A stretch of DNA of 64,000 nucleotides from a virus (lineage: Duplodnaviria; Caudoviricetes), in IMG/VR virus record IMGVR_UViG_3300017700_000537, positions 11,160 to 75,159 of that record; one strand, 5' to 3'. The notes beneath the pieces were generated by a model. The model had not been told where the DNA came from. It saw only the letters and a list, made by a program, of their open reading frames with translations, and searched no databases. Within the stretch, counting starts at the first letter, position 1. Every line of letters begins with the position of its first letter. The position numbers were made by a program, and so were the translations under genes. This document shows, piece by piece, positions 3,902-45,211 of this stretch.

Positions 3902-4191
3902 CAAAAATCAATAAAAATAAAGAAGCAAGAAAGCCAATCGTCGCCAAGGTTGACCTGAAATTCATCAGGACTATCGGCAAGATGGCTGGAAAGCTCACCG
4001 CTGGCACGACCACAGCCTATTTGCTGCCGTTCATGTTCAGCCGGAACGTTGAAATGCCGGTCGGGATGTACCAAGTGACGGAACTACGGGACCTGCCCGA
4101 CAATGTGCTGGCCAGCTTTGGACTGCAAAGAATCCAAGTTCCAGTCCCCGCAGAAATTGTTGACCAAAAAATCCCGGCAAATGAGGAATAA
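3898..4191 (+). CDS. hypothetical protein
   Basis: 97-aa ORF with ATGA overlap. Confidence 0.55.
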   Translation: MTKINKNKEARKPIVAKVDLKFIRTIGKMAGKLTAGTTTAYLLPFMFSRNVEMPVGMYQVTELRDLPDNVLASFGLQRIQVPVPAEIVDQKIPANEE

Positions 4192-4771
4192 CAAATCCGG
4201 CACCTACGCCAAGGCCCCGCTTAACTACGAAGAGCTGCGCACCTTCATCGACACCATCATTAACCCAGAGTACCGCCTGATGGTAGCCATCATCACAGCG
4301 GGCTTCATGCGGGTAGGAGAGGTGGTGAAGATGCGGAAGGGCGACATCGCCAACGGCAAGATAATGGTCAGAAAGACCAAAGTCCGCCATGACAAGAACC
4401 ATCGCCCCATAAAACCCTACCGTGAGGTCCCTATGCCAGAATGGGTTCAGGAAATCGCCAACGAAGTATTGCCACTCCTAAAAAGGCAGAAGGACGAGCT
4501 GTTGTTTCAGAAACAACGTGGAGGTGGAGGGCTAACTGTGAACGGCGTGAATGACAGGCTTGACAGGATTTTCGCAAAGACCGAGACCACTCAAAAGGTC
4601 ACTTGCCACTCCCTGCGCCGCACGGCAGCCGTCAGGATTCACGACAACAGCGGGAACGACCTTCGCATGGTGCAGATAGCCTGCGACCACAAGTCCATCG
4701 CCACATCCGGCATCTACGTGATGAAGGGTAGGGCGGATTTCGAGGAAAAATACAAAGCAGCATTCGGATGA
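4181..4771 (+). CDS. tyrosine recombinase, catalytic domain only (196 aa)
   Basis: Catalytic set R (MRVGE), K (KTK), HxxR (HSLRR), H (CDH), Y (GIY); no N-terminal core-binding or arm-binding domain. Confidence 0.88.
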   Translation: MRNNKSGTYAKAPLNYEELRTFIDTIINPEYRLMVAIITAGFMRVGEVVKMRKGDIANGKIMVRKTKVRHDKNHRPIKPYREVPMPEWVQEIANEVLPLLKRQKDELLFQKQRGGGGLTVNGVNDRLDRIFAKTETTQKVTCHSLRRTAAVRIHDNSGNDLRMVQIACDHKSIATSGIYVMKGRADFEEKYKAAFG

Positions 4772-13848: not shown

Positions 13849-15216
13849 ATGAACAATCTCCGGGTAACATTCGACAAGACGGACACCCAACTGCTTCTCA
13901 GCGACTCGCTGGAGACCGGCGAATGCCGTGTTGTCATCACCTACCCGGATGGGATTGTCCAGGACTTGGGCAAGATACTGAAATTGAGCAATGACTGGGC
14001 GTATTCTCTCGCCAGTAGGACCGATTTGTTCGGCAACTACATGGAGGGTGAATACGCCTTTCTTTTTGAGAGGTACGATGTTGGCGGGACCACCCCGACA
14101 TCCACAGATTCCGGCACGTTCACGCTTTCCGTGGACGCAGTGACGCCCGAGGTCACAGTGACGAACGATTCGCTCACGCCATCATTGAGGCTCACAGATT
14201 CCACTGATTGGAATGCAGAGATTGACGGCGTGTGGACGATAGACACACTGTTGAGGATTTGGAACGCACAGAACGGGTTACACTACTTCGGGCCCAGCTC
14301 GCAGGCAACCTTGAGCCTGTTCGATTCCGGCTATTTTACCGGAACCTACACCTACACCATCACGGCGGACACCGCCTATAACCACGAAAACGGCTGGGTG
14401 AGCGTAAAGCTGTCCAGTGAAACAAGCGGAGAATTCATTGTAAAACAACCTGTTATGCTACCAGAAATATTGGCATTGCTTAATTGCCTATACGCAAAAA
14501 TCATCGCCAAGCAGTGCTGCAAGGATGCGACCTACGACGAGATGCAGTCCGACTACATCAAGGCGAGCGCCATGTTCAGCTCTTTTGTGCTGAACGGCCA
14601 GGCCGATATAACTTCGAGCCAGGCGTCACTGTTGTTCGGCTCAGACTGCGAGCTCGGCATCCTCGGCATCCTCAGGAAGTGGGGATGCTACGATGACACG
14701 CTCACCGAGGCGCAACTTGCTTCCTACGACTATTGTCTGTGCGATACAGGTGGTGGTGGCGGAACGGTAGCATCAAGAGAGGGGTATGATGCCGGAAACG
14801 GCTGCTTCCTAACCTCTGATGCCACAGATGACGATGACCGTTGGACATTCGCAGTAGCATCAGGTATCGGTTCGTTCACGCAGAACCTTGCTGGTAGCCG
14901 TATTTTCGGTGGCACCGTCCGTGGTGACGATTCAACTGCCACGCACACATCGAACTCTGCGACAAACAGCTTCAAGCTGAACGTTCCAGTCCCAGGTGAA
15001 CTCGCCAACCTCGGATACGCATCTGCATTGTTGGCCAGCACGAGCGTGTGGTCATCCCCAAACTCCGACCCAACAGCGGCAGCTCCTTGGGTGTTGGATG
15101 AGGGCAGTGTGCAGAAGCGCATTGTCGGCATAGCTTCCGGGGTAATTTCATTTGTCTTTGCCGGGATTGGGGCAACCTATCCAGACGGCTGGGCGATTAC
15201 ATTCGAAACACCATGA
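13849..15216 (+). CDS. putative structural protein (head/fibre attachment)
   Basis: 455 aa, Thr/Ser/Asp-rich beta-type regions, central Cys-containing helical part, GGGGG linker; no signal peptide. Confidence 0.5.
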   Translation: MNNLRVTFDKTDTQLLLSDSLETGECRVVITYPDGIVQDLGKILKLSNDWAYSLASRTDLFGNYMEGEYAFLFERYDVGGTTPTSTDSGTFTLSVDAVTPEVTVTNDSLTPSLRLTDSTDWNAEIDGVWTIDTLLRIWNAQNGLHYFGPSSQATLSLFDSGYFTGTYTYTITADTAYNHENGWVSVKLSSETSGEFIVKQPVMLPEILALLNCLYAKIIAKQCCKDATYDEMQSDYIKASAMFSSFVLNGQADITSSQASLLFGSDCELGILGILRKWGCYDDTLTEAQLASYDYCLCDTGGGGGTVASREGYDAGNGCFLTSDATDDDDRWTFAVASGIGSFTQNLAGSRIFGGTVRGDDSTATHTSNSATNSFKLNVPVPGELANLGYASALLASTSVWSSPNSDPTAAAPWVLDEGSVQKRIVGIASGVISFVFAGIGATYPDGWAITFETP

Positions 15217-18200
15217 TGAAAAGAGTATTTTTATTGATTTTTTTGGTGCTGTGGGGACTTGCTTCGTTTGGTCAAACAAATGAGCTTGTGGGTACGTTCT
15301 CTGTGGTTTCATCCACAGGCTCGGACCCTACTCCCACAGTAACGGGCAACTTCAACTCCACTGCTGGCTTTTTGCCACAAAATGTCGATACTGGCGATGT
15401 AATGCTGGTCAGGCAGGTATTTGCTGGCAACCACCGGCGCAAGCTGTACCGGATTACTGGAATCACCGGCAACAGCCCGCTGGTGCTCACGATGACACTG
15501 ATTGAAGGCACCACTGGCGGGCCATTTCCGGCAGGCACACAGGAAATCTTCCGCAGGACAGCCAAGGGCGCACTGCTCGACGTTCCGAACGTCTCTCAAG
15601 AGCTGGAATCCTACACCTATAACTACAATGTCCAGCATTTTGAGGATGCTGACGTTGATACTACGATAATCAGGAACGATAGCAGCTTTGTGCTTCTTAA
15701 CGACGGCACAGAGTTCTATCTAGGCCCAAGTACGGCAAACGGCATCTCAGACTCCTACCAGATTGGAGATTCCATTTATGTCGTCACTGGCATGGACACC
15801 ATTTTCACAGGGATCGCCTATGCGAACCCTGAAATTGATACAATCTACAACGACGGCACCAACTACTACATGGTGACTGTCGAGGGCGATACTATCGAAA
15901 TAGGGGCAGTGGCCCAGGTCGTGGCAAATGGGGCACACCCAACTAACCCACCAGCCTACTTAATCCATATCGACACGCTCGGAACGGATACAATCTATTT
16001 CGATAATGGAGGCGTGTGGGTAAGATTCAATGTGGGGGGGAGCTCAATCGGAGCTCCACTATTTACTGCGCTCAACGCTACCCTGACATCTTTCCATCCG
16101 GCAGGGGTGCCGCCAATCGGGGCCATCATCTGGAACCCATTCCGAGGGGTGCTTATGCGGAAGTATGGTCCGGTCGGGATATTCACCATTGGAGAGCCGA
16201 ACGGGAAGAACGTTTATGTCACCGAACGATACTACCAAGCAGATACATTGGATGGCTGGAACATCTCTACACATGCTTCAGCGACATTCGCCCTTGATGT
16301 GGTGAACGGCTACGCCGATGACCCGCTCGGGCTTTCTTCCTCGCAAAGAGGTGGTTCTCGGACAATGGTAGTCACCAACAGTTCCGGCAGCCCACTGACT
16401 GTGACGTTCAGCACCAAATATCGGAACACGCTCGGAACTACGCCATTATCACCAATCACCATAACCGAAAACTCGGAACTCACACTTGACTTCACGGTGG
16501 ATGTCAACGACACGGAGACGATAATGCGGCTCAGTGCGCCATTGTCGTCCGGCAGTTCATATGCGTTCCAGAACTTGGCAAACGGGATTGACCTACTTGA
16601 ATCAGGTGGAACAGTAACTGTCGCACCGAACATCACCGAGCTTGTGTACGCCGCAGTGGCTGCCGCAGACTCCGTAATGATTTGGGACAGTTCGTTGAAT
16701 GCCCACAGGCGGTCCAGTGTGGCCGAGATAGTGGCCCTTGCAAGTGCAGGCACGGTGACTGTAACGAACTTGGCCAATGGATTGGACATCTTTATGACCG
16801 GAAGCGACATCACAATCGCCCCGGACTTCGGAGAGCTACCAAACGCAGCCGTGGCAAATGCTGATAGCGTAATGGTGTACGACGTGAGCGCAGCGGCTTA
16901 CCGGCGGGTGTCGGCAGCCTCAATAGCCGCTCTTTTTGCTGGCAGTGGGCTTACTGGTGTCACAGACCAAGCGAATGGCCTTGACATCGCTGCTGGCGGT
17001 GGGTTGGTAACAATTGACTACGATTTCGATGAACTCCCAACCGATGTCACATACAACGGCACGGAGCAGTTCATCTTCAAGGACCTCATAGATGGGGTCT
17101 ATAAAAAAGCTACTACCTCTTTCCTTGCTGGCGGATACCTTGACCTCACAACCGACCAAACAGTAAGCGCAGGGGTGAAGAAATTCGCAGGTGGGCTACA
17201 ATGGGGTACGGGCACGATGCCTACTGGCATACCGTTCGGCTCTGCCACGCAGACAGTGTTCGGATTGAAGGGAGGTTCAACGCTACCGCTATCCGAATCA
17301 GCTTGGGCGAACTACGGCGGATTGGTTATCGAGAACAACTTGGTGCCAAATACCGTCACCACAAGGTTCATCGCAACCGGAGATGACTCTGGCACCCCAG
17401 ATAACTCCGTCATGTCGTTCTTCACGCGCCCAGCAGGGGCTTCACAGAACGTTGTTGAGAACTTCCGGCTGACATCGGCTGGCGCATTCTTTGGCAATTC
17501 TTCTGGGCTTTCATCTGGAACCGCTGGCGGGGTAGCGAACGTACCGATTCAAGGCATTGGATGGGATGGTGGGCAAAGTCTCTGGAGATTGGCTTCTGGC
17601 CAGCCAGGCGGGTTTCTTTTGCTGGAAAACGGCAACCTGAATATGCAGGTGCCAGTAGGCCAGCAGACATGGCAGCCAGCTTCGGACATCAGGCTGAAGC
17701 ACGACACAGTTCGGCTTGACATCACCCCGGCCAACATCCGGGACTTCAAGTCTTACACCTATAAATGGAATACCTCGGACAGTGCCACTATCGGCGTGAT
17801 AGCCCAGCAGATTGAGGCTGATTTCCCGGAAATCGTTCACTTGATGGCGGGGACTGTCGATACGATGGGTGTTGATTACTATGCGCTCGCGGCAATCGCC
17901 TACGCTGCCTGTGAAGAGCTTCAGCGACAGATTGATTCGTTGTCCACCGGCAGAGGCGTTGACACCACGGCATCGGCAGGAAATCTACTGATAGATATAG
18001 AAACCAATTTCGCAAACATAACCGGCAGTACCACAACAAATGCCATCTATACAACCGATAGAAGGGCAGGAAGCGAGGTGACACTGTTGTTTACCACAGG
18101 GACCCCAACAATCAAGCATAATACATCGGGTGGGGCAGGTACGGCAGCAATGCTGTTGGCCGGAGCTGTCGATTTCACACCAAGCGGGCCATCTACCTTG

Positions 18201-18257
18201 ACGCTCATTTATGACGGGTCAAGGTGGCATGAAAAATGTAGGTCAATCAATCATTAA
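15213..18257 (+). CDS. fibre-like protein with Sec signal peptide, three ~65-aa repeats and a peptidase S74 chaperone domain
   Basis: MKRVFLLIFLVLWGLASFG|Q; repeats NLANG(I/L)D at about 16563-17134; S74 signature ASDIRLKH...IGVIAQQIE...VDYYALAAIAYAACEELQRQIDSL. Confidence 0.8.
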   Translation: MMKRVFLLIFLVLWGLASFGQTNELVGTFSVVSSTGSDPTPTVTGNFNSTAGFLPQNVDTGDVMLVRQVFAGNHRRKLYRITGITGNSPLVLTMTLIEGTTGGPFPAGTQEIFRRTAKGALLDVPNVSQELESYTYNYNVQHFEDADVDTTIIRNDSSFVLLNDGTEFYLGPSTANGISDSYQIGDSIYVVTGMDTIFTGIAYANPEIDTIYNDGTNYYMVTVEGDTIEIGAVAQVVANGAHPTNPPAYLIHIDTLGTDTIYFDNGGVWVRFNVGGSSIGAPLFTALNATLTSFHPAGVPPIGAIIWNPFRGVLMRKYGPVGIFTIGEPNGKNVYVTERYYQADTLDGWNISTHASATFALDVVNGYADDPLGLSSSQRGGSRTMVVTNSSGSPLTVTFSTKYRNTLGTTPLSPITITENSELTLDFTVDVNDTETIMRLSAPLSSGSSYAFQNLANGIDLLESGGTVTVAPNITELVYAAVAAADSVMIWDSSLNAHRRSSVAEIVALASAGTVTVTNLANGLDIFMTGSDITIAPDFGELPNAAVANADSVMVYDVSAAAYRRVSAASIAALFAGSGLTGVTDQANGLDIAAGGGLVTIDYDFDELPTDVTYNGTEQFIFKDLIDGVYKKATTSFLAGGYLDLTTDQTVSAGVKKFAGGLQWGTGTMPTGIPFGSATQTVFGLKGGSTLPLSESAWANYGGLVIENNLVPNTVTTRFIATGDDSGTPDNSVMSFFTRPAGASQNVVENFRLTSAGAFFGNSSGLSSGTAGGVANVPIQGIGWDGGQSLWRLASGQPGGFLLLENGNLNMQVPVGQQTWQPASDIRLKHDTVRLDITPANIRDFKSYTYKWNTSDSATIGVIAQQIEADFPEIVHLMAGTVDTMGVDYYALAAIAYAACEELQRQIDSLSTGRGVDTTASAGNLLIDIETNFANITGSTTTNAIYTTDRRAGSEVTLLFTTGTPTIKHNTSGGAGTAAMLLAGAVDFTPSGPSTLTLIYDGSRWHEKCRSINH

Positions 18258-18258
18258 C

Positions 18259-19515
18259 ATGAAGAACATATTTTTAGCAATATTTTTGTTGGTTTCGGCT
18301 GTTGCTTTTGCGCAGCCAGTATCGAACACCATCACCTCCGATGGGAGTGTGGTCACAGTTGCAACTCCTGTCAACTCGAAATCTATCCCAGTTTGTAGCT
18401 TTAACTGGATAATCGTTGATGGATACTTGCGTATCTGGATAACAGGATCCAATGAGCAGGTCCCAGGCGGCAGACTAAAGTTCTTCACCATCAATGGGGT
18501 GACGGACAACAGTTTAAAGGCTGGTGCGCTTGGGGCTATCACGGATGAGTGCTCGGCAGGCGGCAGCGGTGGTGGACTTGACTCATTATATTATGGCACC
18601 TCGCTGCTTGCAAATGGTGATACGATTGCTGTGAGTGGTAACACCATTTACACTGCTTCGGATAGTGTGGCTAATAATGACCAGCAAGTTAAAATAAAAG
18701 ACGACAGCACGTTTTCAATAAGTTATGGATTGCCATACGAACAATTTTGGAATGATTACGCTAACAGCACTAGGTTTTCAGGTATGTTTAATTCGGAAGG
18801 TTATTGGGGAGCAAATGGTTTTGCGCTTTTGGAAAAAAATGGAGATTCACTAACAATTGAAAGCTACATTAATATTAAAAGTGATGGTGAGGTTTATATT
18901 TCCTCAAAAAAATCTGGAACAAATAAACAGGCGTCATTTGCATTATCAGAAAATGGGCCAAGTTTTTCAGGGTCTAATCCAACCTATACATATAAACTTC
19001 CATCTTCGTCCCCTTCCATCACAAACCTAGCAAAATCCATAATAACTTGGACGGGGGATGGTTCTACAACTACTCCGGCTTTTGAAGCATACTTATTTGG
19101 CACAACAACAAATGACAACGCTAGTGCTGGCTATATTGGCGAATACATTTCATCCACATTAGCTAGTGGCTCTGCCCTGTCTTTTACTACTGCCACCGCC
19201 AGGAATATTGATACGCTCGTTCTTGCGGCAGGAGATTGGGATGTTGACGCAAACTTGATATTTGGGGAGGGTTCCGCAACTGTCACTAGCCGCAGTGCTG
19301 CAATAACCACAACCAGTGCGACACTGCCTAGTAACGGAACAGAGTGCCCGCTTGATATTCCAACCACACTTACAAGCGGCAGGAATAGTATTTCAGTCAA
19401 GACGACTAGGATTTCTATTGCAAGCACGACGAATGTCTATTTAGTGGGCAGTGCAACATTTTCGGCTGGAACTGTTTCTGGCTATGGAAGTTTTTCCGCA
19501 AGGAGAGTAAGGTAG
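18259..19515 (+). CDS. second fibre/spike-like protein with Sec signal peptide
   Basis: MKNIFLAIFLLVSAVAFA|Q; C-terminus GTTTNDNASAGYIGEY...LAAGDWDV...SARRVR resembles phage tail-fibre tip domains. Confidence 0.65.
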   Translation: MKNIFLAIFLLVSAVAFAQPVSNTITSDGSVVTVATPVNSKSIPVCSFNWIIVDGYLRIWITGSNEQVPGGRLKFFTINGVTDNSLKAGALGAITDECSAGGSGGGLDSLYYGTSLLANGDTIAVSGNTIYTASDSVANNDQQVKIKDDSTFSISYGLPYEQFWNDYANSTRFSGMFNSEGYWGANGFALLEKNGDSLTIESYINIKSDGEVYISSKKSGTNKQASFALSENGPSFSGSNPTYTYKLPSSSPSITNLAKSIITWTGDGSTTTPAFEAYLFGTTTNDNASAGYIGEYISSTLASGSALSFTTATARNIDTLVLAAGDWDVDANLIFGEGSATVTSRSAAITTTSATLPSNGTECPLDIPTTLTSGRNSISVKTTRISIASTTNVYLVGSATFSAGTVSGYGSFSARRVR

Positions 19516-19552
19516 GTAATGGGACAGTATTTTAGAACAAATTTTATAACTA

Positions 19553-20152
19553 ATGAATTTAAGGCAAAAAATCGGACTGAATATTGTCAAGGCAAGTTTT
19601 TTGAGACTAGCCTTGTCATTAGTCTGGCCAGTATTGGTCGGCGCACGGGTTTTGGTTACTATTTTTTGTATTGGGATATTACTCCTCGTTCCGGGTAAGG
19701 TGGTAGCACAAGAACCTTATTTGCCTAAGACAGAAAAAGTGCAGTACGGCTTCACGCCTGGTAAGATTATTGGGTGGGCTTCATTGGCTATTGGCGGTTT
19801 CGCAGATGGGGCATTGGAGGGTTATCAATTTGATTCAAGGAAGTCCTTTGAGCGAAAATGGAACAGTGACCCGTATGGGTTTTGGGGCAGCCAAAGCTGG
19901 CGGATGATTTATAATGAGGGCAATCCGCAGATGGGGGTTAAATCTAAAATCCATAACTGGCTAGGGGCTGTTGATTTTTACCACGTAGCGGATGACACCC
20001 GAAAAATTGGGTACATCGGCGGTGGAATTACGCTTGGAATTTCTGGGTGTAAGGCAAACAAGAAGTGGTGGCACTGGGCGCTGGATATTGGAATATCGTC
20101 AATCATTTCATCTTCCGCCAAATCGCTTGGGATGAAATGGGTAAGGAGTTGA
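19553..20152 (+). CDS. membrane or secreted hypothetical protein
   Basis: Long hydrophobic N-terminus ending VVA|QEP and further hydrophobic segments. Confidence 0.55.
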   Translation: MNLRQKIGLNIVKASFLRLALSLVWPVLVGARVLVTIFCIGILLLVPGKVVAQEPYLPKTEKVQYGFTPGKIIGWASLAIGGFADGALEGYQFDSRKSFERKWNSDPYGFWGSQSWRMIYNEGNPQMGVKSKIHNWLGAVDFYHVADDTRKIGYIGGGITLGISGCKANKKWWHWALDIGISSIISSSAKSLGMKWVRS

Positions 20153-20175
20153 AACATTTTAAACAGCATCAAAAT

Positions 20176-20739
20176 ATGAAGAAGATTTTATTGTTCGCAT
20201 TCCTAGTCACCTTCCTGGCAAACCCGTTTGCGCAGACGAAGCCATTAGTTAAGAAATCAGCGCCACAGGCTGAAAGGCCAATCCAGATTGACACCACTGC
20301 TCCAGAAGTAGTATTCGCAGACCTCTGCATCCAGCTTGAAGGAGACAGCATCTGTGTGCCGACCAATGACGCCAAGGTAGCATCTGACATCATTATCGAG
20401 TTCTATCGGAAGCATGAAGGCAATCTGCCTACTTCTGCCGGTGGATGGGTATTATTAGTGTTCGGGTTCCTGACCAGCGCGGCAGGGACGGTATTCGTTG
20501 GGAGCACAAAGAAAATCGTTGCCTTCCTAAAGCTGTTCTTGAAGAAAAAGGCCAACGTGGTTGCTTTCGTTGCAGGCATCCTAGCCCTGTTCGTCACGCT
20601 GTTGATAGGTCAGTGGAAGTTTGACGGCACCACCTTTATAGGCATCTGGGGCGTACTCTCCGCTGCATCGTGGCTGGTGTACGAGAATGTTCTTGCGAAG
20701 AAAGATACTCCGAAGGTTGACCCAGTAGCTACTGCGTAA
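20176..20739 (+). CDS. membrane protein with signal peptide and ~3 C-terminal TM segments
   Basis: MKKILLFAFLVTFLANPFA|Q; hydrophobic stretches from GWVLLVFGFL onward. Confidence 0.6.
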   Translation: MKKILLFAFLVTFLANPFAQTKPLVKKSAPQAERPIQIDTTAPEVVFADLCIQLEGDSICVPTNDAKVASDIIIEFYRKHEGNLPTSAGGWVLLVFGFLTSAAGTVFVGSTKKIVAFLKLFLKKKANVVAFVAGILALFVTLLIGQWKFDGTTFIGIWGVLSAASWLVYENVLAKKDTPKVDPVATA

Positions 20740-20740
20740 T

Positions 20741-22258
20741 ATGCAGATTTCGTTCAGCAAGTTGGGGAACATGGGGAGATTGGCGAACCAATGCTTCCAA
20801 GTAGCATCTATGAAAGGGCTAGCTCGCAGCAAAGGTTGTGAGCTAGCCCTTCCTGCATGGAGGTACAGCAAATACTTCGTAGGGAAACACCCAGAAGGCC
20901 ATTGCCGTGGAATACAGGTAAGTGAACCAGCCTTCCACTACTGCGGTGACTTCATCCCGAACGACGAAAGAGGGGTTGACGTGGTGGGCTACCTTCAATC
21001 ACCCAAATACTGGCAGGCTATCGAACCGGAAATCAAAAAGCATTTTGAGTGGGAGCCAAATTTCTTGGCACAAATACGTCAAAAGTACGTCCACACACTT
21101 AGTAAGCCAACCGTGGCGATACACATCCGCCGTGGAGATTACGTTAACAACAAAGCATACGTCAACCTCCCACCACTCTACTACCTCCGGGCAATCATCG
21201 AAAAAATCCCGGACTGGCGCAACTGCCACCTGGTATTCTTCAGCGATGACCAATCGTATGCAAAAATGCACTTCGGGTGCTTTGAGAACGCACAGTTCCC
21301 GGACGGCGACGAGATGGACAACCTCTGTTTGATGACCCAGTGCGACCACTTTGTAATCGCAAACAGTAGCTACTCCTGGTGGGGAGCGTACTTAGGCGAG
21401 AAACCGCACAGTATTATCGTCCGCCCGGAACGGCACTTCTCCGGCAGCCTCGCAGGAACCTCGATAGCCGACCTATACCCTGAACATTGGACGAAGCTCA
21501 ATGAGCTGAACAGAAAAATAGACCTCAACGACATCACCTTTGTGGTGCCAATGAGCTATGACCACCCGGACAGGTTTGAAAACCTTACCTTGATGGTCGG
21601 TCTTTTGAAAGCCAACTTTGACACGAAGTTCTCATTCGTCGAACAAGGAGGGAGAAAGTTGGGCGCTTTTACGCCTTGGCGGTTCTTTGAAGGGAAGCAC
21701 TTTCACCGGACAAAGATGCTTAACGATGCCATCAGAGATGCCAAGACCCCGTTCGCAGCGAACTACGACAGTGATGTGGCATTGCCGCCTGCGCAGATAT
21801 TCGAGGCCGTGGAAAGGCTAAGAAATGGCGCAGACATAGTGTACCCCTACACTGGAGACTTCTGGCACGTCACAAGGAATCCCGGATATGAGAACCTTAA
21901 AAACAGCATGGATGTCGGGATATTCTCGCAGCTAAGTTTCAGGAAAACAGAAAACTCAAGGGGCGGGGCGGTGTTTATGAACATCAAGTCATTCTTCAAG
22001 GCAGGCGGGGAAAACGAGAACTTTATCTCCCACGGCCCAGAAGATGCAGAAAGGTGGATTCGGTTCACAAGACTTGGCCTGGTTGTTGATTTCATAAAGG
22101 GCTGCATCCTGCACATGGAACACTGGCGGGGGAACAACTCGCATTCAATGAAGCACCCGAATGGGCAGCGAAACCAGGATGAATATCACAAGGTGATGGC
22201 GATGGACAAGGAGCAGTTAAAAGCGTACATAAAAACGTGGTCATGGGCGGCAACGTGA
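20741..22258 (+). CDS. GT11 alpha-1,2-fucosyltransferase-like domain fused to a GT2/GT7C galactosyltransferase-like domain
   Basis: GT11 motifs GRLANQCFQ, HIRRGDY, FFSDD, CDHFVIANSSYSWWGAYL; C-terminal YDSDV, GGAVF, GGENENFISHGPED. Confidence 0.88.
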   Translation: MQISFSKLGNMGRLANQCFQVASMKGLARSKGCELALPAWRYSKYFVGKHPEGHCRGIQVSEPAFHYCGDFIPNDERGVDVVGYLQSPKYWQAIEPEIKKHFEWEPNFLAQIRQKYVHTLSKPTVAIHIRRGDYVNNKAYVNLPPLYYLRAIIEKIPDWRNCHLVFFSDDQSYAKMHFGCFENAQFPDGDEMDNLCLMTQCDHFVIANSSYSWWGAYLGEKPHSIIVRPERHFSGSLAGTSIADLYPEHWTKLNELNRKIDLNDITFVVPMSYDHPDRFENLTLMVGLLKANFDTKFSFVEQGGRKLGAFTPWRFFEGKHFHRTKMLNDAIRDAKTPFAANYDSDVALPPAQIFEAVERLRNGADIVYPYTGDFWHVTRNPGYENLKNSMDVGIFSQLSFRKTENSRGGAVFMNIKSFFKAGGENENFISHGPEDAERWIRFTRLGLVVDFIKGCILHMEHWRGNNSHSMKHPNGQRNQDEYHKVMAMDKEQLKAYIKTWSWAAT

Positions 22259-22751
22259 GGCTTGGACATAGGAGCTACGGGGAGCCGATAGTCCGTGGTG
22301 ACATCTCGGACGTGATTATCGGCAAGTATTGCTCGATAGCGCAGAACGTCATTGTTGACTGTGGCTGGCACCACAACGTTGATTGGGTGACTACCTATCC
22401 GTTGAATGCAATCCTGACCAGTCTGCGACACATCACCGGCCATCCAAAGTCAAACGGAAACATAGTCATCGGAAATGATGTTTGGATAGGTGAAGGTGCT
22501 GTCATAATGGGCGGGGTGACGATAGGGGATGGGGCTGTGGTCGGCAGCAACGCCGTGGTGACAAAGGATGTAGACCCATACGCCATAGTCGGCGGAATCC
22601 CGGCAAAAAGATAAGGATGAGGTTCGACAGCCAGACGATAGCCGAACTGATAGAAATAGCTTGGTGGGACTGGAGCGACGAGAAGGTTGTCGAAGCTGGT
22701 CCGCTTCTTCTTCAAAACGACATTAAAAAATTCATAGAAAAATATGGTTAA
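22237..22751 (+). pseudogene. CatB/Vat-type hexapeptide-repeat O-acetyltransferase, frameshifted
   Basis: IIGKYCSIAQNV, IVIGNDVWIGEGAVIMGGVTIGDGAVVGSNAVVTKDV; the typical tail KIRMRFDSQTIAELIEIAWWDW is out of frame after an A5 run at 22605-22609. Confidence 0.8.
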
Positions 22752-23313
22752 ACAGAAATACGCAGACATCGTGACTCCAGAGCTTCTGGAAGGCGCAATC
22801 GAGAATTTGGAATACGTTGGCTTCCGGGAAGACTACCATGTCCTCCATTGCCTGCTCAAGATTCACAAGCCGAAATCCCTATTGGAAATCGGCACGAACA
22901 TGGGCCGTGGCACGAAGATAATCAAGAATGCGCTTGGTCCAGAAAGTGATGTGTACAGCCTGGATTTACCAACAGACCTTGCACACATCAGCCTGCAACA
23001 TCCAATCAATGAAGGGCATGGAGATAGGGTTGGGCATCTTTGCAGCCTTCCGTTCACGCAGTTGAGGGGAGACAGCATGGAGTTTGATTTCAAGCAGTAT
23101 CCTTGCGAAGCCTACTATATTGATGGCGAGCACGACTTCAGTCACCCATACCGTGAAACATCTGAAATCGTAAAGAATAAGCCACATATTATAATTTGGC
23201 ACGATAGCGATATTGATGTCGTTTATAATGCAATCACCGCTGCGATGAAGGATAAGCCATACGAACTGTATCGGGTCGTTGATACTCGCATCGCATACGC
23301 AATCAGGAAATGA
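22744..23313 (+). CDS. class I SAM-dependent methyltransferase (Methyltransf_24-like)
   Basis: LLEIGTNMGRGT motif I; YYIDGEH motif. Confidence 0.8.
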   Translation: MVKQKYADIVTPELLEGAIENLEYVGFREDYHVLHCLLKIHKPKSLLEIGTNMGRGTKIIKNALGPESDVYSLDLPTDLAHISLQHPINEGHGDRVGHLCSLPFTQLRGDSMEFDFKQYPCEAYYIDGEHDFSHPYRETSEIVKNKPHIIIWHDSDIDVVYNAITAAMKDKPYELYRVVDTRIAYAIRK

Positions 23314-24068
23314 CGGGAATCGTAATCGTAACATACAATCGTGCCGACCTGCTCCCGCTACAACTGGAAGCGATAAGGCTGTTCTGTGCGGACAAGCATG
23401 AAGTTGTCATTATCGACAACTCAACGGATGAAGAATCTTCCGCCATGATAGCGTTCATTGCCTCCGATAACAGGGTGTACAGAACGTCGTCGAACAGCAG
23501 GAACAGCAGCGACAGTCATGCTTTTGCTGCCAATTTCGCTTTCAATAAGCTGAGGAACGACTACGAGCACTTCCTGTTCTTGGACCACGATATTTTCCCT
23601 ACTAAGCCATTCTCTGTGGCAGAAATGCTGCGGGACAGGTTTATTGGTGGCCTTGGGCAAATAAAGCACAAGACCTATCTTTGGCCGGGGTTTGTGTTCT
23701 GGCGGAACGACAAAATCGAATCACTTGACTTCTCCACATCACCGGGGCTTGACACCGGCGGTAACACATGGAAAGAGGTGGAGAGGATTGGCATCGAGGG
23801 GGTTGTCTGGCAGCCGGAAGTTTACCATGAAAACCCATACTTCAAGGAACCTCCGTACAATTTCTATTCGGTCATCGGGGATGGCTGGATGCACTTCATA
23901 AACTCGTCGAATTGGAACGGACAGCCCAACCACAACGAAAGGCTGGACTCCCTGACGACGATACTAAGAGAAAAAATCAATGAAAGTATCGCTTTGCATC
24001 ATAGCAACCAACAAGTACACGAAGTACCTCCCGAAACTCTTATCGTCACTGGCGACTTTCTTCCTTAA
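23310..24068 (+). CDS. GT-A fold glycosyltransferase (GT2-like)
   Basis: IVIVTYNR N-terminus, VVIIDNS, LFLDHD (DxD). Confidence 0.7.
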   Translation: MTGIVIVTYNRADLLPLQLEAIRLFCADKHEVVIIDNSTDEESSAMIAFIASDNRVYRTSSNSRNSSDSHAFAANFAFNKLRNDYEHFLFLDHDIFPTKPFSVAEMLRDRFIGGLGQIKHKTYLWPGFVFWRNDKIESLDFSTSPGLDTGGNTWKEVERIGIEGVVWQPEVYHENPYFKEPPYNFYSVIGDGWMHFINSSNWNGQPNHNERLDSLTTILREKINESIALHHSNQQVHEVPPETLIVTGDFLP

Positions 24069-24699
24069 CGGCCATGATGTGGAATACTGCATCTTCACGG
24101 ATAAAACAGCCGACGTGTTCAAAGAAAACAAGCGCCACAAGGACAAGCCGAAGATATTCAACGTCCCGCACTTGCCCTGGCCGAACTCTACCCTGAAACG
24201 GTTTCACTTTTTCAACGAAAATAAAGAATACATCACCGGAGACTACGTGTTCTACATAGATGCCGACACAAGGCTCGTGGACTACGTGGGCGACGAAATC
24301 CTTTCCGACTTGGTGGCAGTCCAGCACTGCGGGTATGTCGGCGAACGTGGCACCTACGAAACGAGAGAGCTTTCGATGGCCTATATAGCCCCGAATGAGG
24401 GTAAGATGTATTTCGGTGGCGGATTCCTTGGCGGGAAGGCAGAGAATTTCTGGCAGGCATCCGAGACGATGGCCAATTCGATAGACGTGGATGCCCACAA
24501 TGGCATTACTGCCATTTACCATGACGAAAGCCATTGGAACCGATACTTGGTTGACAATCCGCCAACAAAAGTGCTGTCGCCAAGCTACCACTTCCCGGAA
24601 AACCATCCGCACATTTATTCGAAATGGCAGAAGGCCGGGGTGTCCTACAAGCCAAAGATTCTTCTCTTGAAGAAGGACCACAAAGAAATGAGAAAATGA
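23980..24699 (+). CDS. GT6 family (ABO-type) alpha-1,3-Gal/GalNAc transferase
   Basis: IIATNKY, IFTD, YIDAD (DxD), YFGGGFLGG, HDESHWNRY, KVLSPSY. Confidence 0.88.
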   Translation: MKVSLCIIATNKYTKYLPKLLSSLATFFLNGHDVEYCIFTDKTADVFKENKRHKDKPKIFNVPHLPWPNSTLKRFHFFNENKEYITGDYVFYIDADTRLVDYVGDEILSDLVAVQHCGYVGERGTYETRELSMAYIAPNEGKMYFGGGFLGGKAENFWQASETMANSIDVDAHNGITAIYHDESHWNRYLVDNPPTKVLSPSYHFPENHPHIYSKWQKAGVSYKPKILLLKKDHKEMRK

Positions 24700-25400
24700 C
24701 AATAGCCTACATCCTCGGAGACGGGTCGAAGCACGACAACCTAGAGTTGCGGCTATCGCTGCGTTCCATCGAGAAGAACCTGAATCCATCGGAGGTCATT
24801 GTTTGCGGCCATGACCCTGGATTTCTGTCCGACAAGGTGAAGTATATCCCGAATTTCCCAGAAAAGAAAGAGAATGATGCTGCGTGGGGAATCAAGGAGA
24901 ACCTATTGGCACTGTGCAGACACCCAGATACGCCGGACGAGTTCACACTTTTTAACGACGATTATTTCATCCTCCAGCCAATGGCCAGCTTCCCGTACTA
25001 CCACAAAGGTGAGCTTCGAGAGGCTATGGAGCGCATTGGGTCAGGCATTTTCTACGGCCACCTTCTCGCAACTGTAACCGTTTTGGAGAAGCAAAAGCTG
25101 CCCACAAAGCACTTTGATTGTCATTGGCCAATCATCTACGACAAGAAAAAGCTCCAAAAAATCATAGAAGACCAAGACTGGGACGTCCCGCTTGGCCCGA
25201 CCATCCGAAGCCTCTACTGCAACACGCTTGGCATCGATGGAGAGTTCGCCGACGACACCAAGCTGAATAGGCCGATAAAAGACTGGGAGCTGCATTGTTT
25301 CGGCAGGAAAATGATTTCTGTGGGCGACGAGTCATTTGATGGCAATTGTCGAAAATACTGGCTATCTTTGTTTCCAAATAAGTCTAGGTACGAAAAATGA
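24696..25400 (+). CDS. glycosyltransferase/Stealth-like sugar transferase
   Basis: ELRLSLRSIEKN and LFNDDYFI motifs; located in the glycan cluster. Confidence 0.5.
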   Translation: MTIAYILGDGSKHDNLELRLSLRSIEKNLNPSEVIVCGHDPGFLSDKVKYIPNFPEKKENDAAWGIKENLLALCRHPDTPDEFTLFNDDYFILQPMASFPYYHKGELREAMERIGSGIFYGHLLATVTVLEKQKLPTKHFDCHWPIIYDKKKLQKIIEDQDWDVPLGPTIRSLYCNTLGIDGEFADDTKLNRPIKDWELHCFGRKMISVGDESFDGNCRKYWLSLFPNKSRYEK

Positions 25401-39965: not shown

Positions 39966-40631
39966 ATGAAAAAACTTCCAGCACTAATAACGATCGCAGC
40001 CTTGGCACTTATTGCAATACTGGCCATCCAGCGTTGTTCCTTTCACAAGCAGAAGGATAAGGATTCAACCGCCCTTCTCGACCTGAACGAGAAGAAATTC
40101 ACGCAGTTCAAAACTGAATCCGGCAAGAACGCAGGTATGGCCGATGCCCGCATCATGGACTTGCAGACGCTGCTTGCGCTAGAGAAGACAAAGGTCGCCA
40201 GGCTGGCCAAAGAACTGAACCTAACCGTGAAGGATATTAAACGGATAGTTGACGTACAGCTAGAGGGAAAGGACACCATCAAGTTGACGCAGGTGGATAC
40301 GATATATTACCCGGAAACAAAAGAGCCTGACGAACCACGGCCTTATTTTGCAGTAAGGCCGTATGTGTTTGAGGATCGCTGGAACTATTTCGAGGCATAC
40401 CTTAATGATGGTGAAATTGACATAAATTACTCCATCACTGATAGTATCCAAATAGTAGAGACAAAATCCGGCAATACAAGGACTTTCACGGCCTTCAACA
40501 GCAATCCTGCCATACGAATTAAAGGTATGCAGGCAATAGTAATTGAGGAGCCAAAGGCACGTAAAAAGAGATTATGGTGGACAATACCAGTGGCCGTTGC
40601 TGCTGGCGTAGTATTAGGTAGTAGATTATAG
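39966..40631 (+). CDS. spanin-like periplasmic protein
   Basis: N-terminal TM, coiled coil, C-terminal hydrophobic anchor WWTIPVAVAAGVVLG. Confidence 0.55.
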   Translation: MKKLPALITIAALALIAILAIQRCSFHKQKDKDSTALLDLNEKKFTQFKTESGKNAGMADARIMDLQTLLALEKTKVARLAKELNLTVKDIKRIVDVQLEGKDTIKLTQVDTIYYPETKEPDEPRPYFAVRPYVFEDRWNYFEAYLNDGEIDINYSITDSIQIVETKSGNTRTFTAFNSNPAIRIKGMQAIVIEEPKARKKRLWWTIPVAVAAGVVLGSRL

Positions 40632-43507: not shown

Positions 43508-43879
43508 TCAGATTTTTGAAAAACACTCCAGCGGATTTGTAAAAAAGCCACAGTACGTCTTCATCGATGTCTGTGACCTCTTCACCCCATCCCTCCACCA
43601 GAATACCGTGCAGGCGATGTAATTGGTGCCGCCCATCTTGTACTCCACAGACCCGTTCAGCGGCAGGAAGTTGGACTCAAAAGCGCCCGTCTTGGGGCAG
43701 ATGACCGAAATCCTGATGGATACGCTGTCCGGCTTCGGATAGCTGTAATTGAACGGCTGCTGGTCAACGGAGAGCCGGTATCGGTCGCCGAGGTTCTGGA
43801 TTTTCAGCGTTCCTGCCGAGATTTGGGCCTCCATCGTTATAGTGGCCAGTAAAAGTGTGAAAAGGATTACAATTTTCAT
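43508..43879 (-). CDS. secreted protein
   Basis: MKIVILFTLLLATITMEA|Q signal peptide. Confidence 0.7.
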   Translation of the reverse strand: MKIVILFTLLLATITMEAQISAGTLKIQNLGDRYRLSVDQQPFNYSYPKPDSVSIRISVICPKTGAFESNFLPLNGSVEYKMGGTNYIACTVFWWRDGVKRSQTSMKTYCGFFTNPLECFSKI

Positions 43880-43941
43880 AAGTATGCTAGTTTAAAATGT
43901 GACTAGCGCTGTTCAGTGTTGTTTTTTGCTTCGTCCCGCAA

Positions 43942-44439
43942 TTAAAATGCCATAAAATACTTCCCATCCCTAGTTCTGAAAAGCATTGCCATGACGCCAA
44001 TGGTTCTTACCCCAATTTTAGAATATGCCGTGATAGTTCCGTCGTCAGATATAAAGCGATGCCCGCCGAACTCGCCGTACACATAGCCTGTGAGATTCCC
44101 AATTATTGAATCCATCTCATAAACAATCAACCCGTTATCGTATTCAATATCCGTGACAGTTCCTGTTTTTACCCCACTAACGGGGCCTACGTATTCAAGG
44201 GTTGTTTCTTTCCGCATCAATAGCTCATAGTCATCAATGATGGATTGAAGCGAATCAATCACATGGATGTAACCAGAACAGGCATCAGCAAGTGTTGTTT
44301 TTTTAATGCTTGATTGGCTATCCATCCATACAACAGGAGTTGTATCTACAACGCCTCCTATTGATTGAACCCCAATTTCTATTTGCCCGAAGGCGTTCGT
44401 CAGCGCAAACAGCGCCAGAATCGTCATTAATTTTTTCAT
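43942..44439 (-). CDS. secreted protein
   Basis: MKKLMTILALFALTNAFG|Q signal peptide. Confidence 0.7.
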   Translation of the reverse strand: MKKLMTILALFALTNAFGQIEIGVQSIGGVVDTTPVVWMDSQSSIKKTTLADACSGYIHVIDSLQSIIDDYELLMRKETTLEYVGPVSGVKTGTVTDIEYDNGLIVYEMDSIIGNLTGYVYGEFGGHRFISDDGTITAYSKIGVRTIGVMAMLFRTRDGKYFMAF

Positions 44440-44460
44440 GTTGAATTTATTGATTGAAAA

Positions 44461-44658
44461 TTATTGCTTCAGCGCCTCTGCCTCGATAGCAGCTTGTATC
44501 GCCTGCCATTTCTGCGCCTTGATGTACCACCTTTCAAAAAGATGTGCTTTCTTCGGGATTGCCTGGTACAGTGCGGCAGTGGCAAAACATGCTTCCGCTT
44601 TCTTGGATACCTCTGCAAGAAGCATTCCCATTTGTTCGTCCGTGAATGTAGGGTTCAT
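44461..44658 (-). CDS. 65-aa helical hypothetical protein
   Basis: ATG overlaps the stop of the 35-aa peptide ORF. Confidence 0.55.
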   Translation of the reverse strand: MNPTFTDEQMGMLLAEVSKKAEACFATAALYQAIPKKAHLFERWYIKAQKWQAIQAAIEAEALKQ

Positions 44659-44762
44659 TGTTTCTTTTTTAGATTTCTGTTCGCCTTCCAAATCAACAAC
44701 TCTAGCCTTATTTTACCGGCAATTGAGTCGAATATTTTGAAAAGAATTGAGAAGAATTTCAT
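44655..44762 (-). CDS. 35-aa amphipathic cationic peptide, copy 1
   Basis: MKFFSILFKIFDSIAGKIRLELLIWKANRNLKKKQ*; ATGA overlaps at both ends; duplicate at 45640-45747. Confidence 0.75.
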   Translation of the reverse strand: MKFFSILFKIFDSIAGKIRLELLIWKANRNLKKKQ

Positions 44763-45199: not shown

Positions 45200-45211
45200 T
45201 GTTGGAAATTA

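Follow-up and report, generated by a model that had tools for sequence, protein, structure and literature searches.

Seroconverting phages carry glycan-modifying genes that change the surface glycan of the host, and the O-antigen pathway of Escherichia coli O86 includes the GT11 enzyme WbnK and the GT6 enzyme WbnI. Freeman and colleagues reportedly placed mycobacteriophage glycosyltransferase (GT) and methyltransferase genes in structural operons in 2023. We know of no tailed phage that adds periplasmic parts to its particles after lysis. SPI leaders in Bacteroidota follow a Q-rule (PMC5837995), and the MAT fibres of Bdellovibrio bacteriovorus, which resemble phage fibres, were described by Caulton et al. 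2024 (PMC10769870).

The locus studied here lies in a window of 64,000 nucleotides (the whole stretch of DNA that was analysed) from the complete 75-kb genome of a short-tailed Bacteroidota phage. Among cultured phages, its nearest kin are the Pachyviridae of Cellulophaga. Its portal (24% identity) and its p1223 link it to Pachyviridae and Elemovirus, and homologous p1223, p225 and p504-type genes are common to it and the Cellulophaga phages phi18:3 and phi46:3. Throughout, a sequon is the motif D-(S/T)-(A/I/L/V/M/T), and expected numbers come from composition-matched shuffles.

Leaders and fibre modules

The fibre genes and their neighbours are as follows.

13849–15216, plus strand: p455, no leader, Cys-rich, with two N-terminal FN3-like sandwiches
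15213–18257, plus strand: fibre 1 (1014 aa), with a predicted leader (aa 1–20), Gln21, an S74 Pfam domain and tail-fibre PHROGs
18259–19515, plus strand: fibre 2 (418 aa), with a predicted leader (aa 1–18), Gln19, a conserved N-terminal domain and a fibre-tip-like C-terminus (about aa 272–418)
19553–20152, plus strand: p199, a membrane or exported protein with an uncertain start codon and 0 sequons
20176–20739, plus strand: p187, with a predicted leader and Gln, a periplasmic segment and 2–3 C-terminal membrane segments

An earlier note on this DNA, whose gene coordinates proved correct on re-check, had claimed a leader followed by Gln on both fibres. Judged by n/h/c-region and −3/−1 rules, the N-termini of fibre 1 and fibre 2 do carry predicted Sec/SPI-type leaders and then Gln (MMKRVFLLIFLVLWGLASFG and MKNIFLAIFLLVSAVAFA, each followed by Q). 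The leader, the small residues at −3 and −1 and the Gln at +1 are kept in 17/17 near homologues of fibre 1, with this Gln immediately upstream of a conserved NELVGTFSV domain. HMMER, run exhaustively on 1.84 billion representatives, returned 20 proteins, with a leader and Gln on every complete N-terminus, and the fibre 2 family likewise keeps both. A true start further downstream, or homologues lacking the leader, had been named as grounds for rejecting export. In fibre 1, the next possible Met start in frame would be aa 64, already within the conserved domain, and no leaderless homologue with a complete N-terminus was found among the 17 near homologues or in the exhaustive search. This conservation suggests that the fibres are Sec/SPI substrates.

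Fibre 1 consists of a conserved anchor (aa 21 to ~330), a variable shaft, the S74 domain and a C-terminal sandwich. The S74 intramolecular chaperone proposed for one fibre is recovered as Peptidase_S74 at aa 824–875 (Pfam E 5.6e-9, passing the cut-off), with Ser824 and Lys829 within SDIRLK. Identity among relatives is ~70% at the N-terminus and <20% at the C-terminus, and the top Foldseek matches include tailspike N-terminal folds (24qj, 7rej). The tail-tip-like C-terminus ascribed to the other fibre also held. Fibre 2 matches phrog_11393, 'tail fiber', there (1.4e-17) and is 36–46% identical to the C-terminal fibre ends of Burkholderia, Klebsiella and Pectobacterium phages, a tip homologous to podovirus fibres. 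With conserved N-terminal anchors and variable tips, both proteins appear to be real phage-fibre modules.

Both fibre genes lie within the late operon and are translationally coupled to p455, whose stop overlaps the fibre 1 start (ATGA). A p455-like gene, sometimes in two pieces, is found immediately 5′ of a leader-bearing fibre in contigs L001–L004, L090, L091 and L092. For the AF2 model of p455 (pLDDT 64), the best Foldseek matches are FN3 domains of gpJ, the central tail fibre of phage lambda; the protein also has invariant Cys residues. A role as partner of fibre 1 on the virion side is probable. A leader and Gln had also been claimed for the next two genes; this stood for p187, where ANPFA precedes the Gln, but not as such for p199. 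There, 52 residues from the ATG precede VVA and Gln, and a normal leader would result only if translation began at the internal TTG that is codon 28, so the start codon is uncertain. Pfam/PHROG searches gave no family match for p199. p187 is conserved in place between the fibres and the GT11 gene, with homologues of 167–186 aa in L001–L004.

Could these leader-bearing, fibre-like proteins be secreted or surface-displayed rather than virion parts, acting in receptor masking, superinfection exclusion or lysogenic conversion, or as a free glycan-binding or -cutting release factor? We consider this unlikely. Their receptor-binding-protein architecture, with a conserved anchor and swappable tips, their late-operon position and their coupling to p455 speak for the virion, and the structural proteins examined included no fibre candidate without a leader. 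The genome also has direct terminal repeats, which are frequent in packaged linear phage DNA. The leader-bearing counterparts in phi18:3 also point to the virion: gp085–087, with leader and Gln, were detected in virion preparations and are annotated in GenBank as 'structural protein... experimental MS/MS proteomics', although they are non-homologous and such preparations can contain co-purifying secreted proteins. On the other side, the phage encodes at least four further small leader-plus-Gln proteins; it also has a tyrosine recombinase and may therefore have a non-lytic phase. Export of S74 fibre proteins to the cell surface does occur in bacteria, as in the MAT fibres (PMC10769870).

Sequon excess in the leader-bearing fibres

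The sequon counts given in the earlier note for the fibres, portal, terminase, 2064-aa protein and p455 were all exact, and the shuffling test that it had called for sets both fibres above chance. Fibre 1 has 15 sequons against 5.24±2.1 in shuffles (p≤0.0005), 7 of them between aa 149 and 259. The excess is weaker in fibre 2 (6 against 2.09, p=0.01), where 6/6 D-S/T dipeptides fit the sequon. The portal has 0, the terminase 1 and the 2064-aa protein 3. Family totals, in which homologues are non-independent counts, are 255 observed against 84.7 expected for fibre 1 and 34 against 17.6 for fibre 2; fibre 2 relatives are inconsistent, some having 3 against 4.0 or 4 against 3.5 expected. The signal-less p455, raised earlier as a caveat, has 7 against 3.08 (p=0.03). 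Its relatives have 2, 1 and 1 against about 2.7, 2.4 and 1.9, and the caveat is resolved because the excess is not kept.

The excess is also motif-specific. Asp is enriched 3.0-fold at position 1 (next best residue, 1.4-fold), S and T ~3-fold each at position 2, and I 7.1-fold, L 4.4-fold, M 4.3-fold and V 2.7-fold at position 3, preferences that agree with the published glycosylation motif (PMC12871550). As controls, non-leader proteins across 80 phage loci have 880 sequons against 882 expected, and large S/T-rich non-leader proteins stay at ≤1.1-fold. Leaderless Elemovirus fibres are at chance level, and gp079–083 of phi46:3 are depleted (3 against 15.4, p=0.0002). It is only in fibres with a leader that the motif frequency deviates from chance, upwards here and downwards in phi46:3, which we read as selection.

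The 7–10 best-conserved sequons lie inside a repeated xDTIy-type strand motif (D-T-I-aromatic) at aa 149–259 of fibre 1. The AF2 model of this repeat has pLDDT <50, so a structural cause may lie behind part of the excess. A reading in which repeats in the shaft structure explain the whole excess, and the hydrophobic N-termini are something other than cleaved signals for export, is in our view very improbable. Leader letters drift across >30 proteins that all keep the n/h/c features and a Gln at +1, and the motif preference follows the published logo residue by residue. Sequons occupy 43 distinct alignment columns, many as lineage-specific singletons outside the repeat, and p187 and p221 are enriched too (p187 family: 2, 3, 2 and 2 against 0.46, 0.51, 0.79 and 0.44 expected). 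Since the fibres carry a host-type secretion signal and have sequons at about threefold the chance level, they probably mature outside the cytoplasm, and their export and glycosylation by the host are likely.

The glycan cassette

The following genes form the cassette.

20741–22258, plus strand: GT11 fusion, with an N-terminal GT11 domain (alpha-1,2-fucosyltransferase type) and a C-terminal GT-A-like, galactosyltransferase-type domain
22237–22751, plus strand: hexapeptide-repeat acetyltransferase (Pfam Hexapep 1.2e-13, passing the cut-off)
22744–23313, plus strand: putative SAM-dependent methyltransferase (Methyltransf_24 3.9e-4; 21.7 bits, below the cut-off of 26.3)
23310–24068, plus strand: GT2 glycosyltransferase (PF00535 4e-7, passing the cut-off; DHD at aa 92)
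23980–24699, plus strand: GT6 glycosyltransferase of ABO type, alpha-1,3-Gal/GalNAc transferase family (PF03414 5.2e-42, passing the cut-off)
24693–25400, plus strand: Stealth-like conserved viral protein, the last cassette gene (PF11380, Stealth CR2, 2.9e-4; phrog_7999 1.9e-34)

Six glycan-modifying genes had been placed directly after the fibres. p199 and p187 intervene, and the six stood only in part: GT11, GT6, GT2 and Hexapep pass Pfam, whereas the methyltransferase and the Stealth-like protein (21.4 against 39.4) fall below their cut-offs and the acetyltransferase gene is frameshifted at an A5 run near 22605–22612. In tblastn, its intact 173-aa homologue from L058 matches over aa 1–124 in one frame and aa 122–170 in another. 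The catalytic motifs of the glycosyltransferases are intact: the GT11 fusion (PF01531 1.4e-19, passing the cut-off; phrog_2644, phrog_15655, phrog_1721) has HIRRGD at aa 128, and GT6, of DxD type, has DAD at aa 94 and HDESHWN at aa 181. For the methyltransferase, identity is 63% with a cassette gene of L019 and 50% with one of L058. The Stealth-like protein, whose Atlas clusters are virus-only, shares 53–73% identity in L002–L004. The cassette holds no initiating transferase, flippase or ligase.

The GT cluster had been proposed to alter the fibre glycan. Its enzymes would remodel the lipid-linked outer O-glycan in the cytoplasm, and the exported fibres would receive a phage-specified H/A/B-like, acetylated and methylated glycan. 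This is speculative and, to us, rather doubtful. Fibres, p187, GT11 fusion and Stealth-like gene do keep a constant order in 5/5 lineage contigs (MCP identity 50–86%), and in Bacteroidota soluble GTs assemble the outer glycan on Und-P; this glycan differs between species and often carries acetyl or methyl groups (PMC12871550). A large GT cluster also accompanies a 1348-aa leader-bearing protein (12 sequons against 5.9 expected) in L023, an unrelated contig of 82 kb. GT11 fusion identities (39% in L001, 50% in L003) do not follow MCP identities, which suggests that the module was swapped, like the fibre tips. Fibre and cassette adjoin, however, in no more than 5 contigs, all of them related. 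At least 551 viral contigs carry a relative of the GT11 fusion, and the co-occurrence of signal-peptide fibres and GT clusters that the earlier note had suggested checking was largely absent: of 76 loci sampled outside the lineage, almost none has a large protein with a leader less than 10 kb away. Nearly the whole cassette sits amid non-structural genes in L058, and right behind the capsid gene, in a long-tailed-phage layout, in L019. In the more distant relatives L090, L091 and L092, the fibres share the anchor domain and have ~2–2.5 times the expected sequons, with no GT gene within the flanks read. The frameshift and the missing initiating transferase, flippase and ligase also count against remodelling. 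The six-gene cassette is a separately mobile module.

That the cassette instead adds sugars to virion proteins while these are still in the cytoplasm, as in mycobacteriophages and unrelated to the exported fibres, is improbable. GT and methyltransferase genes inside structural operons are the mycobacteriophage pattern, as cited in PMC11256854, and the homologous L019 cassette adjoins the capsid gene downstream. Yet GT11 and GT6 extend glycans and depend on a sugar as acceptor, a transferase that could initiate on protein was not identified, and the capsid and neighbouring proteins are without Ser/Thr-rich C-terminal tails.

Proposed maturation route and comparison with known systems

We favour, at a probability of roughly 60%, a route of export, periplasmic folding, host O-glycosylation and attachment at lysis, with the cassette as a separate, mobile unit. 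Fibre 1, fibre 2 and p187 would be made as Sec/SPI pre-proteins, and cleavage would expose a Gln that probably becomes pyroglutamate. Folding and trimerisation would take place in the periplasm, aided in fibre 1 by the S74 chaperone domain, which would then cleave itself off. The host general O-glycosylation system would modify the three proteins at D-S/T-hydrophobic sequons. Only once lysis mixes the compartments would the fibres attach to tail-ready particles, docking through their conserved N-terminal anchor domains, probably on the signal-less p455. The soluble, Leloir-type cassette enzymes would most likely add an H/A/B-type cap to a host glycan carried on undecaprenyl phosphate; the candidate recipient polymers are protein O-glycan, capsule and LPS.

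Mycobacteriophage virion glycosylation resembles this locus in gene order, with GT and methyltransferase genes inside a structural operon. It differs in modifying capsid and tail-tube proteins directly in the cytoplasm, without an export signal. As in seroconverting phages and the O86 pathway, the combined action of GT11, GT6 and GT2 on a sugar unit attached to lipid would give an H/A/B-like cap, but the present cassette is without Gtr-type membrane components, initiating transferase or flippase. The MAT fibres (PMC10769870) are likewise trimeric and phage-fibre-like, have S74 chaperone domains and act outside the cytoplasm; they differ as cellular surface adhesins of a predator, outside any virion operon and without the Bacteroidota sequon or Q-rule.

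Nearer at hand are phi18:3 gp085–087 (KC821620.1) and phi46:3 gp079–083 (KC821622.1), from the same broad Bacteroidota podovirus clade. All are large late proteins that resemble fibres or pectate lyases and begin with an SPI leader followed by Gln; GenBank notes their detection in virions by MS/MS. They are non-homologous to the present fibres, lie elsewhere in the genome beside lysis genes and are sequon-depleted (3 against 15.4; 3 against 9.8) where the present fibres are enriched; no GT cluster is annotated within the 49 kb of phi46:3 read. Substrates of Bacteroidota general O-glycosylation (PMC12871550; PMC5837995) share with the present candidates a noncytoplasmic address, predicted here, Gln after the cleavage site and the same motif preferences. 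The difference is that the putative substrates described here are phage-encoded tail-fibre modules.

Late operon and fibre proteins

The window (record positions 11160-75159) belongs to a single virus record of 75,159 bp, which is rated as complete and flanked by direct terminal repeats. Among GenBank phages we found neither a nucleotide match to the window nor a match to its capsid protein, and cultured phages were reached by the portal and p1223 only. Matches to Flavobacterium Elemovirus and Cellulophaga Pachyviridae, both of which infect Bacteroidota, were given by the portal (24% identity, 87% of length) and by the p1223 N-terminus. The late genes are on the plus strand throughout.

Late operon, in order, window positions
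First block, plus strand: terminase, portal, scaffold-like protein, capsid protein, p268, p455 (13849-15216)
Second block, plus strand: fibre 1 (15213-18257, 1014 aa), fibre 2 (18259-19515, 418 aa), p199 (19553-20152), p187 (20176-20739), then six glycan genes (20741-25400)
Last block, plus strand: p253, p209, p247, p105, p1223, p225, p504, 2064-aa protein

Separately, a 222-aa ORF (4103-4771, plus strand) has a Phage_integrase (tyrosine recombinase) match above cut-off (E 3.3e-18). It is short for an integrase, and integration, dimer resolution and inversion are candidate roles in this genome with direct terminal repeats. The late operon of related contigs is broken by mobile-element genes (L002 1763-2845, minus strand, and 22755 onward; L001 18046-18816 and 20464-21198; L004 17832-18389). 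TnpB/Cas12f-like genes separate terminase from portal and also follow the p105 homologue, and HNH-type endonuclease genes lie within the glycan cluster.

The identities that the earlier note gave to the two fibres were borne out. Fibre 1 has an S74 chaperone (Peptidase_S74, 36.6 bits against a cut-off of 22), with Ser824 and Lys829 in SDIRLK (S-D-x-R-x-K). The C-terminus of fibre 2, described as tip-like, is 36-46% identical over its last ~140 residues to the C-termini of tail fibres in phages of Burkholderia, Klebsiella and Pectobacterium. PDB sequence searches with fibre 1, fibre 2, p455 and p1223 gave no meaningful match. An AF2 model of residues 1-450 of fibre 1 was mediocre (pLDDT 64), and the sequon-rich residues 145-280 came out unmodelled; the top structural matches of this model were the N-terminal regions of tailspikes, Acinetobacter phage Solidus gp83 and CBA120 TSP4. 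A beta-propeller lectin match in aa 145-280 was of low probability and was disregarded.

Among relatives, fibre 1 is ~70% identical over its N-terminal ~330 residues, while the remainder is less than 20% identical and the C-terminal modules differ. Receptor-binding proteins are typically built in this way, with a conserved anchor and a swappable tip, which argues that fibre 1 is a virion part. Fibre 1 has a conserved N-terminal anchor and a variable C-terminus and is homologous to known fibre modules, and we infer that both fibres are virion parts. Set against this anchor-and-tip design, a surface or secreted function outside the virion appears unlikely.

A leaderless p455-like gene lies directly before the fibre in every relative read, including the more distant L090 (capsid 41% identical), L091 and L092. 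p455 is predicted to contain two FN3-like sandwiches resembling the lambda central fibre, and has many invariant cysteines. In some distant relatives (L091 220-1622 and an SRR19514074 contig), the p455 homologue consists of two adjacent genes of ~230 aa each. These two genes correspond to the FN3-like N-terminal and the Cys-rich C-terminal halves of p455.

Predicted export signals and glycosylation motifs

Fibre 1, with an ATG that overlaps the stop of p455, starts with MMKRVFLLIFLVLWGLASFG, followed by QTNELVG. Fibre 2, whose start is one base past the fibre 1 stop, begins with MKNIFLAIFLLVSAVAFA, followed by QP. Leaders were called by rules only (basic n-region, h-region of ~10-15 hydrophobic residues, small residues at -3/-1, no lipobox Cys, Gln at +1), and the argument for them is comparative. 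By these rules, a Sec/SPase I leader with the Gln at +1 of the Bacteroidota Q-rule (PMC5837995) is present in fibre 1, fibre 2 and p187, as well as in 17/17 close and 13 distant fibre 1 homologues and five fibre 2 homologues. The 17 fibre 1 homologues from a word-based search all begin with basic residues and a hydrophobic core, and have small residues at -3/-1 and Gln at +1. Directly after this Gln the mature N-terminus is almost invariant (S/T-N/G-E-L/V-V-G-T-F), while the leader residues vary freely. We also performed an exhaustive HMMER search of 1.84 billion representatives with a profile of the fibre 1 anchor region. Just 20 proteins were returned, and each complete N-terminus, down to E=6e-4, is a leader followed by Gln. 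The fibre 2 family shows the same leader behaviour.

The earlier note had held that a true start downstream, or homologues without a signal peptide, would speak against export. Neither does so, since the next Met of fibre 1 is residue 64, within the conserved domain, and no leaderless homologue was found in these searches. The leader that had been proposed for p199 (VVA before Gln) holds only with an internal TTG start. Our literature search found no paper on signal peptides of Bacteroidota phage tail fibres; the Hankyphage paper describes phage DGR targets without signal peptides and takes this absence as a mark of phage origin.

Four tandem small genes of 123-165 aa at 43508-45643 (minus strand) also encode leaders (ending ...MEA, ...AFG, ...CQA and ...LSA), each followed by Gln, and none of the four has a Pfam match. 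A fifth small gene of this leader-plus-Gln type lies ahead of the window (genome 2785-3135, minus strand).

Counts in the earlier note, including those of the Bacteroidota O-glycosylation sequon D-(S/T)-(A/I/L/V/M/T), were all exact. The composition-matched shuffling that it had proposed as a check sets the 15 sequons of fibre 1 against 5.24±2.1 expected (p<=0.0005) and the six of fibre 2 against 2.09 (p=0.01); among controls treated in the same way, the portal has 0 against 2.1 expected and the 2064-aa protein 3 against 6.1. These 15 and 6 sites would be noncytoplasmic, judging from the leaders, and are predicted attachment sites. The fibre 1 family holds 255 sequons against 84.7 expected, counts that are not independent because the homologues share ancestry.

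The excess is specific to the motif. Among X-[ST]-[AILVMT] triplets, Asp alone stands out at position 1 (3.0x; next residue, 1.4x). S and T are on top at position 2 between Asp and a hydrophobic residue (~3x), and I (7.1x), L (4.4x), M (4.3x) and V (2.7x) are enriched after D-[ST]. These preferences agree with the published glycosylation logo, and Bacteroidota O-glycosylation sites are near-fully occupied, with engineered motifs becoming glycosylated (PMC12871550). As calibration, 1,379 leaderless proteins from 80 phage loci contain 880 sequons against 882 expected, and large S/T-rich leaderless proteins reach at most 1.1x. The earlier concern that amino-acid composition explains part of the enrichment, raised by the sequons of leaderless p455, was settled by p455 relatives, which have 2, 1 and 1 sequons against 2.7, 2.4 and 1.9 expected.

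A repeated D-T-I-aromatic strand motif (aa 149-259, 486 and 551) accounts for eight to ten conserved sequons of fibre 1. The other ~30 sequon columns of the family are lineage-specific, which indicates turnover and not one inherited repeat. With this turnover and with leaders kept throughout the family, it seems very improbable that the leaders are non-functional and the motif purely structural. The fibre 2 family is just ~1.9x enriched, with some members at chance, and the exported p187 family is also enriched (9 against 2.2 expected).

Elsewhere in the window, p221 (DUF6549; 39966-40631, plus strand) is bitopic, with hydrophobic segments at its N- and C-termini, and has four sequons where 0.7 would be expected (p=0.004). 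A spanin-like envelope protein is a possible identity.

The glycan cassette and its proposed link to the fibres

The glycan cassette is composed of a GT11 fusion, an acetyltransferase, a methyltransferase, GT2, GT6 and a Stealth-like gene. These six had been placed directly after the fibres; the cluster is there, but p199 and p187 lie between. GT11 matches the alpha-1,2-fucosyltransferase family (PF01531, 70.9 bits against 23.9) and has HIRRGD (HxRRxD) at aa 128. The ABO-type GT6 (PF03414, 144 bits) has DAD (DxD) at aa 94 and HDESHWN at aa 181, and GT2 has a DHD motif. From these motifs, GT11, GT6 and GT2 look active. All cassette enzymes are soluble and none has a leader. GT11 and GT6 together make H-type caps and then A/B-type caps, as they do on a lipid carrier in the E. 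coli O86 O-antigen. Direct glycosylation of virion proteins in the cytoplasm is an improbable alternative; Ser/Thr-rich C-terminal tails, a sign of such glycosylation, were sought on capsid-side proteins and none was found.

The remaining genes are less clear-cut. The methyltransferase call keeps a Pfam match, but below cut-off. The Stealth-like protein shows CR2 alone (21.4 bits against a cut-off of 39.4) and falls short of a Stealth hexose-1-phosphoryl transferase; its Atlas clusters are virus-only and mostly unnamed. The hexapeptide acetyltransferase gene is present, but its reading frame shifts at an A5 run, which puts the C-terminal ~50 residues in another frame. The context (22590-22620, ATCCCGGCAAAAAG) resembles an AAAATCYCGGC-type motif, and either an assembly error or true slippage on the A5 run could explain the frameshift. 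In 5/5 lineage contigs, a variable middle lies between the GT11 fusion and the Stealth-like gene.

At least 551 viral contigs have relatives of the GT11 fusion. Almost none of 76 sampled loci outside the lineage has a large leader-bearing protein within 10 kb, which is moderate evidence, as the host phylum is not set for most of the other contigs with the cassette. L058 (4016-9449) has nearly the entire cassette among non-structural neighbours (acetyltransferase 66%, methyltransferase 50%, GT2 44%, GT6 42%, as well as GT11 and Stealth-like genes). L019 (7022-11818), with a long-tailed-phage layout, has the GT11 fusion, GT6, methyltransferase (63%) and GT2 directly 3' of the capsid gene. Both are unrelated phage contigs with close copies of the cassette. 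L090-L092 have the same fibre anchor and tandem exported fibres with 2-2.5x sequons, and a GT gene is absent from the flanks read. A GT6 query against genome contigs found one spirochaete MAG (33% identity), a hit uninformative as to host or kind of locus.

With the cassette found without the fibres and the fibres without the cassette, the two modules are separable, and this is evidence that the cassette is an independent mobile module. A rule tying sequon-rich fibres to a phage GT cluster and sequon-poor ones to none was rejected, L090-L092 being rich with no GT in view. Exported fibres and a GT cluster co-occur in five related contigs and the unrelated L023 only. The earlier note had treated the two as one system; their co-occurrence does not go beyond mobility and chance. 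Its version, in which the cassette-extended lipid-linked glycan ends up on the fibres, gains from L023, in which a large GT cluster accompanies an exported, sequon-rich protein of 1348 aa. However, the fibre link is lost in the wider survey, and we consider this version doubtful.

Proposed assembly route and comparison with cultured phages

Tailed phages are conventionally described as assembling wholly in the cytoplasm. Our preferred reading, to which we assign a probability of about 0.6, is that the fibres would be exported by Sec/SPI, O-glycosylated by the host and trimerised in the periplasm, and that their anchor domain would dock, probably to p455, once lysis mixes the compartments. The cassette would most likely extend a lipid-linked host glycan. 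A fuller scheme, in which the GT11/GT6/GT2/acetyl/methyl cassette rewrites the lipid-linked outer O-glycan of the host, the host's machinery in the periplasm loads this phage-specified, blood-group-like glycan onto Sec-exported fibres, and these are joined via p455 to particles built in the cytoplasm at lysis only, is speculative and rather unlikely. If true, it would be a two-compartment assembly line yielding a tailed virion with a virus-designed glycan coat.

The only fibre proteins of the lineage have a conserved export signal that is predicted to be cleaved, which implies a periplasmic branch of virion assembly, as well as host-type glycosylation of receptor-binding proteins. This would affect views of host range, antibody recognition and fibre engineering for Bacteroidota phages, gut phages included. 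An ABO/H-type GT cassette moving between unrelated phages is relevant to phage-driven surface-glycan variation. This window adds the exhaustive search without a leaderless homologue, the conserved p455-fibre gene pair, the contrast of enriched, depleted and chance sequons, and the GT cassette as an independent mobile module.

The block of p455, fibres and glycan genes occupies the site of opposite-strand small genes in Pachyviridae, as seen against phi46:3, which has five leader-bearing genes in tandem. In phi18:3, gp085, gp086 and gp087 start with MKNKITIIMILMSISFGYS, MKKTIYILSILLLTISGVSA and MKHTFSIVLFFILSIGLNA, each followed by Gln, and are annotated in GenBank as 'structural protein, annotation based on experimental MS/MS proteomics analysis'. 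Such proteins have been detected by proteomics in virions of cultured relatives, and by analogy to phi18:3 the fibres would be present in the virion.

The same phages differ from the present lineage in their sequons. Leader-bearing gp079-083 of phi46:3 (L006 6344-14946) are depleted, with 3 against 15.4 expected (p=0.0002), as are the leader-bearing structural proteins of phi18:3 (L007 3001-8693), with 3 against 9.8 (p=0.01). The lineage studied here is enriched instead, and the Flavobacterium Elemovirus fibre candidates, which are leaderless, do not differ from chance. Only leader-bearing fibres deviate from chance in the motif, in either direction; this is the pattern expected of selection by periplasmic glycosylation machinery and suggests that selection acts on the glycosylation motif in exported fibres.
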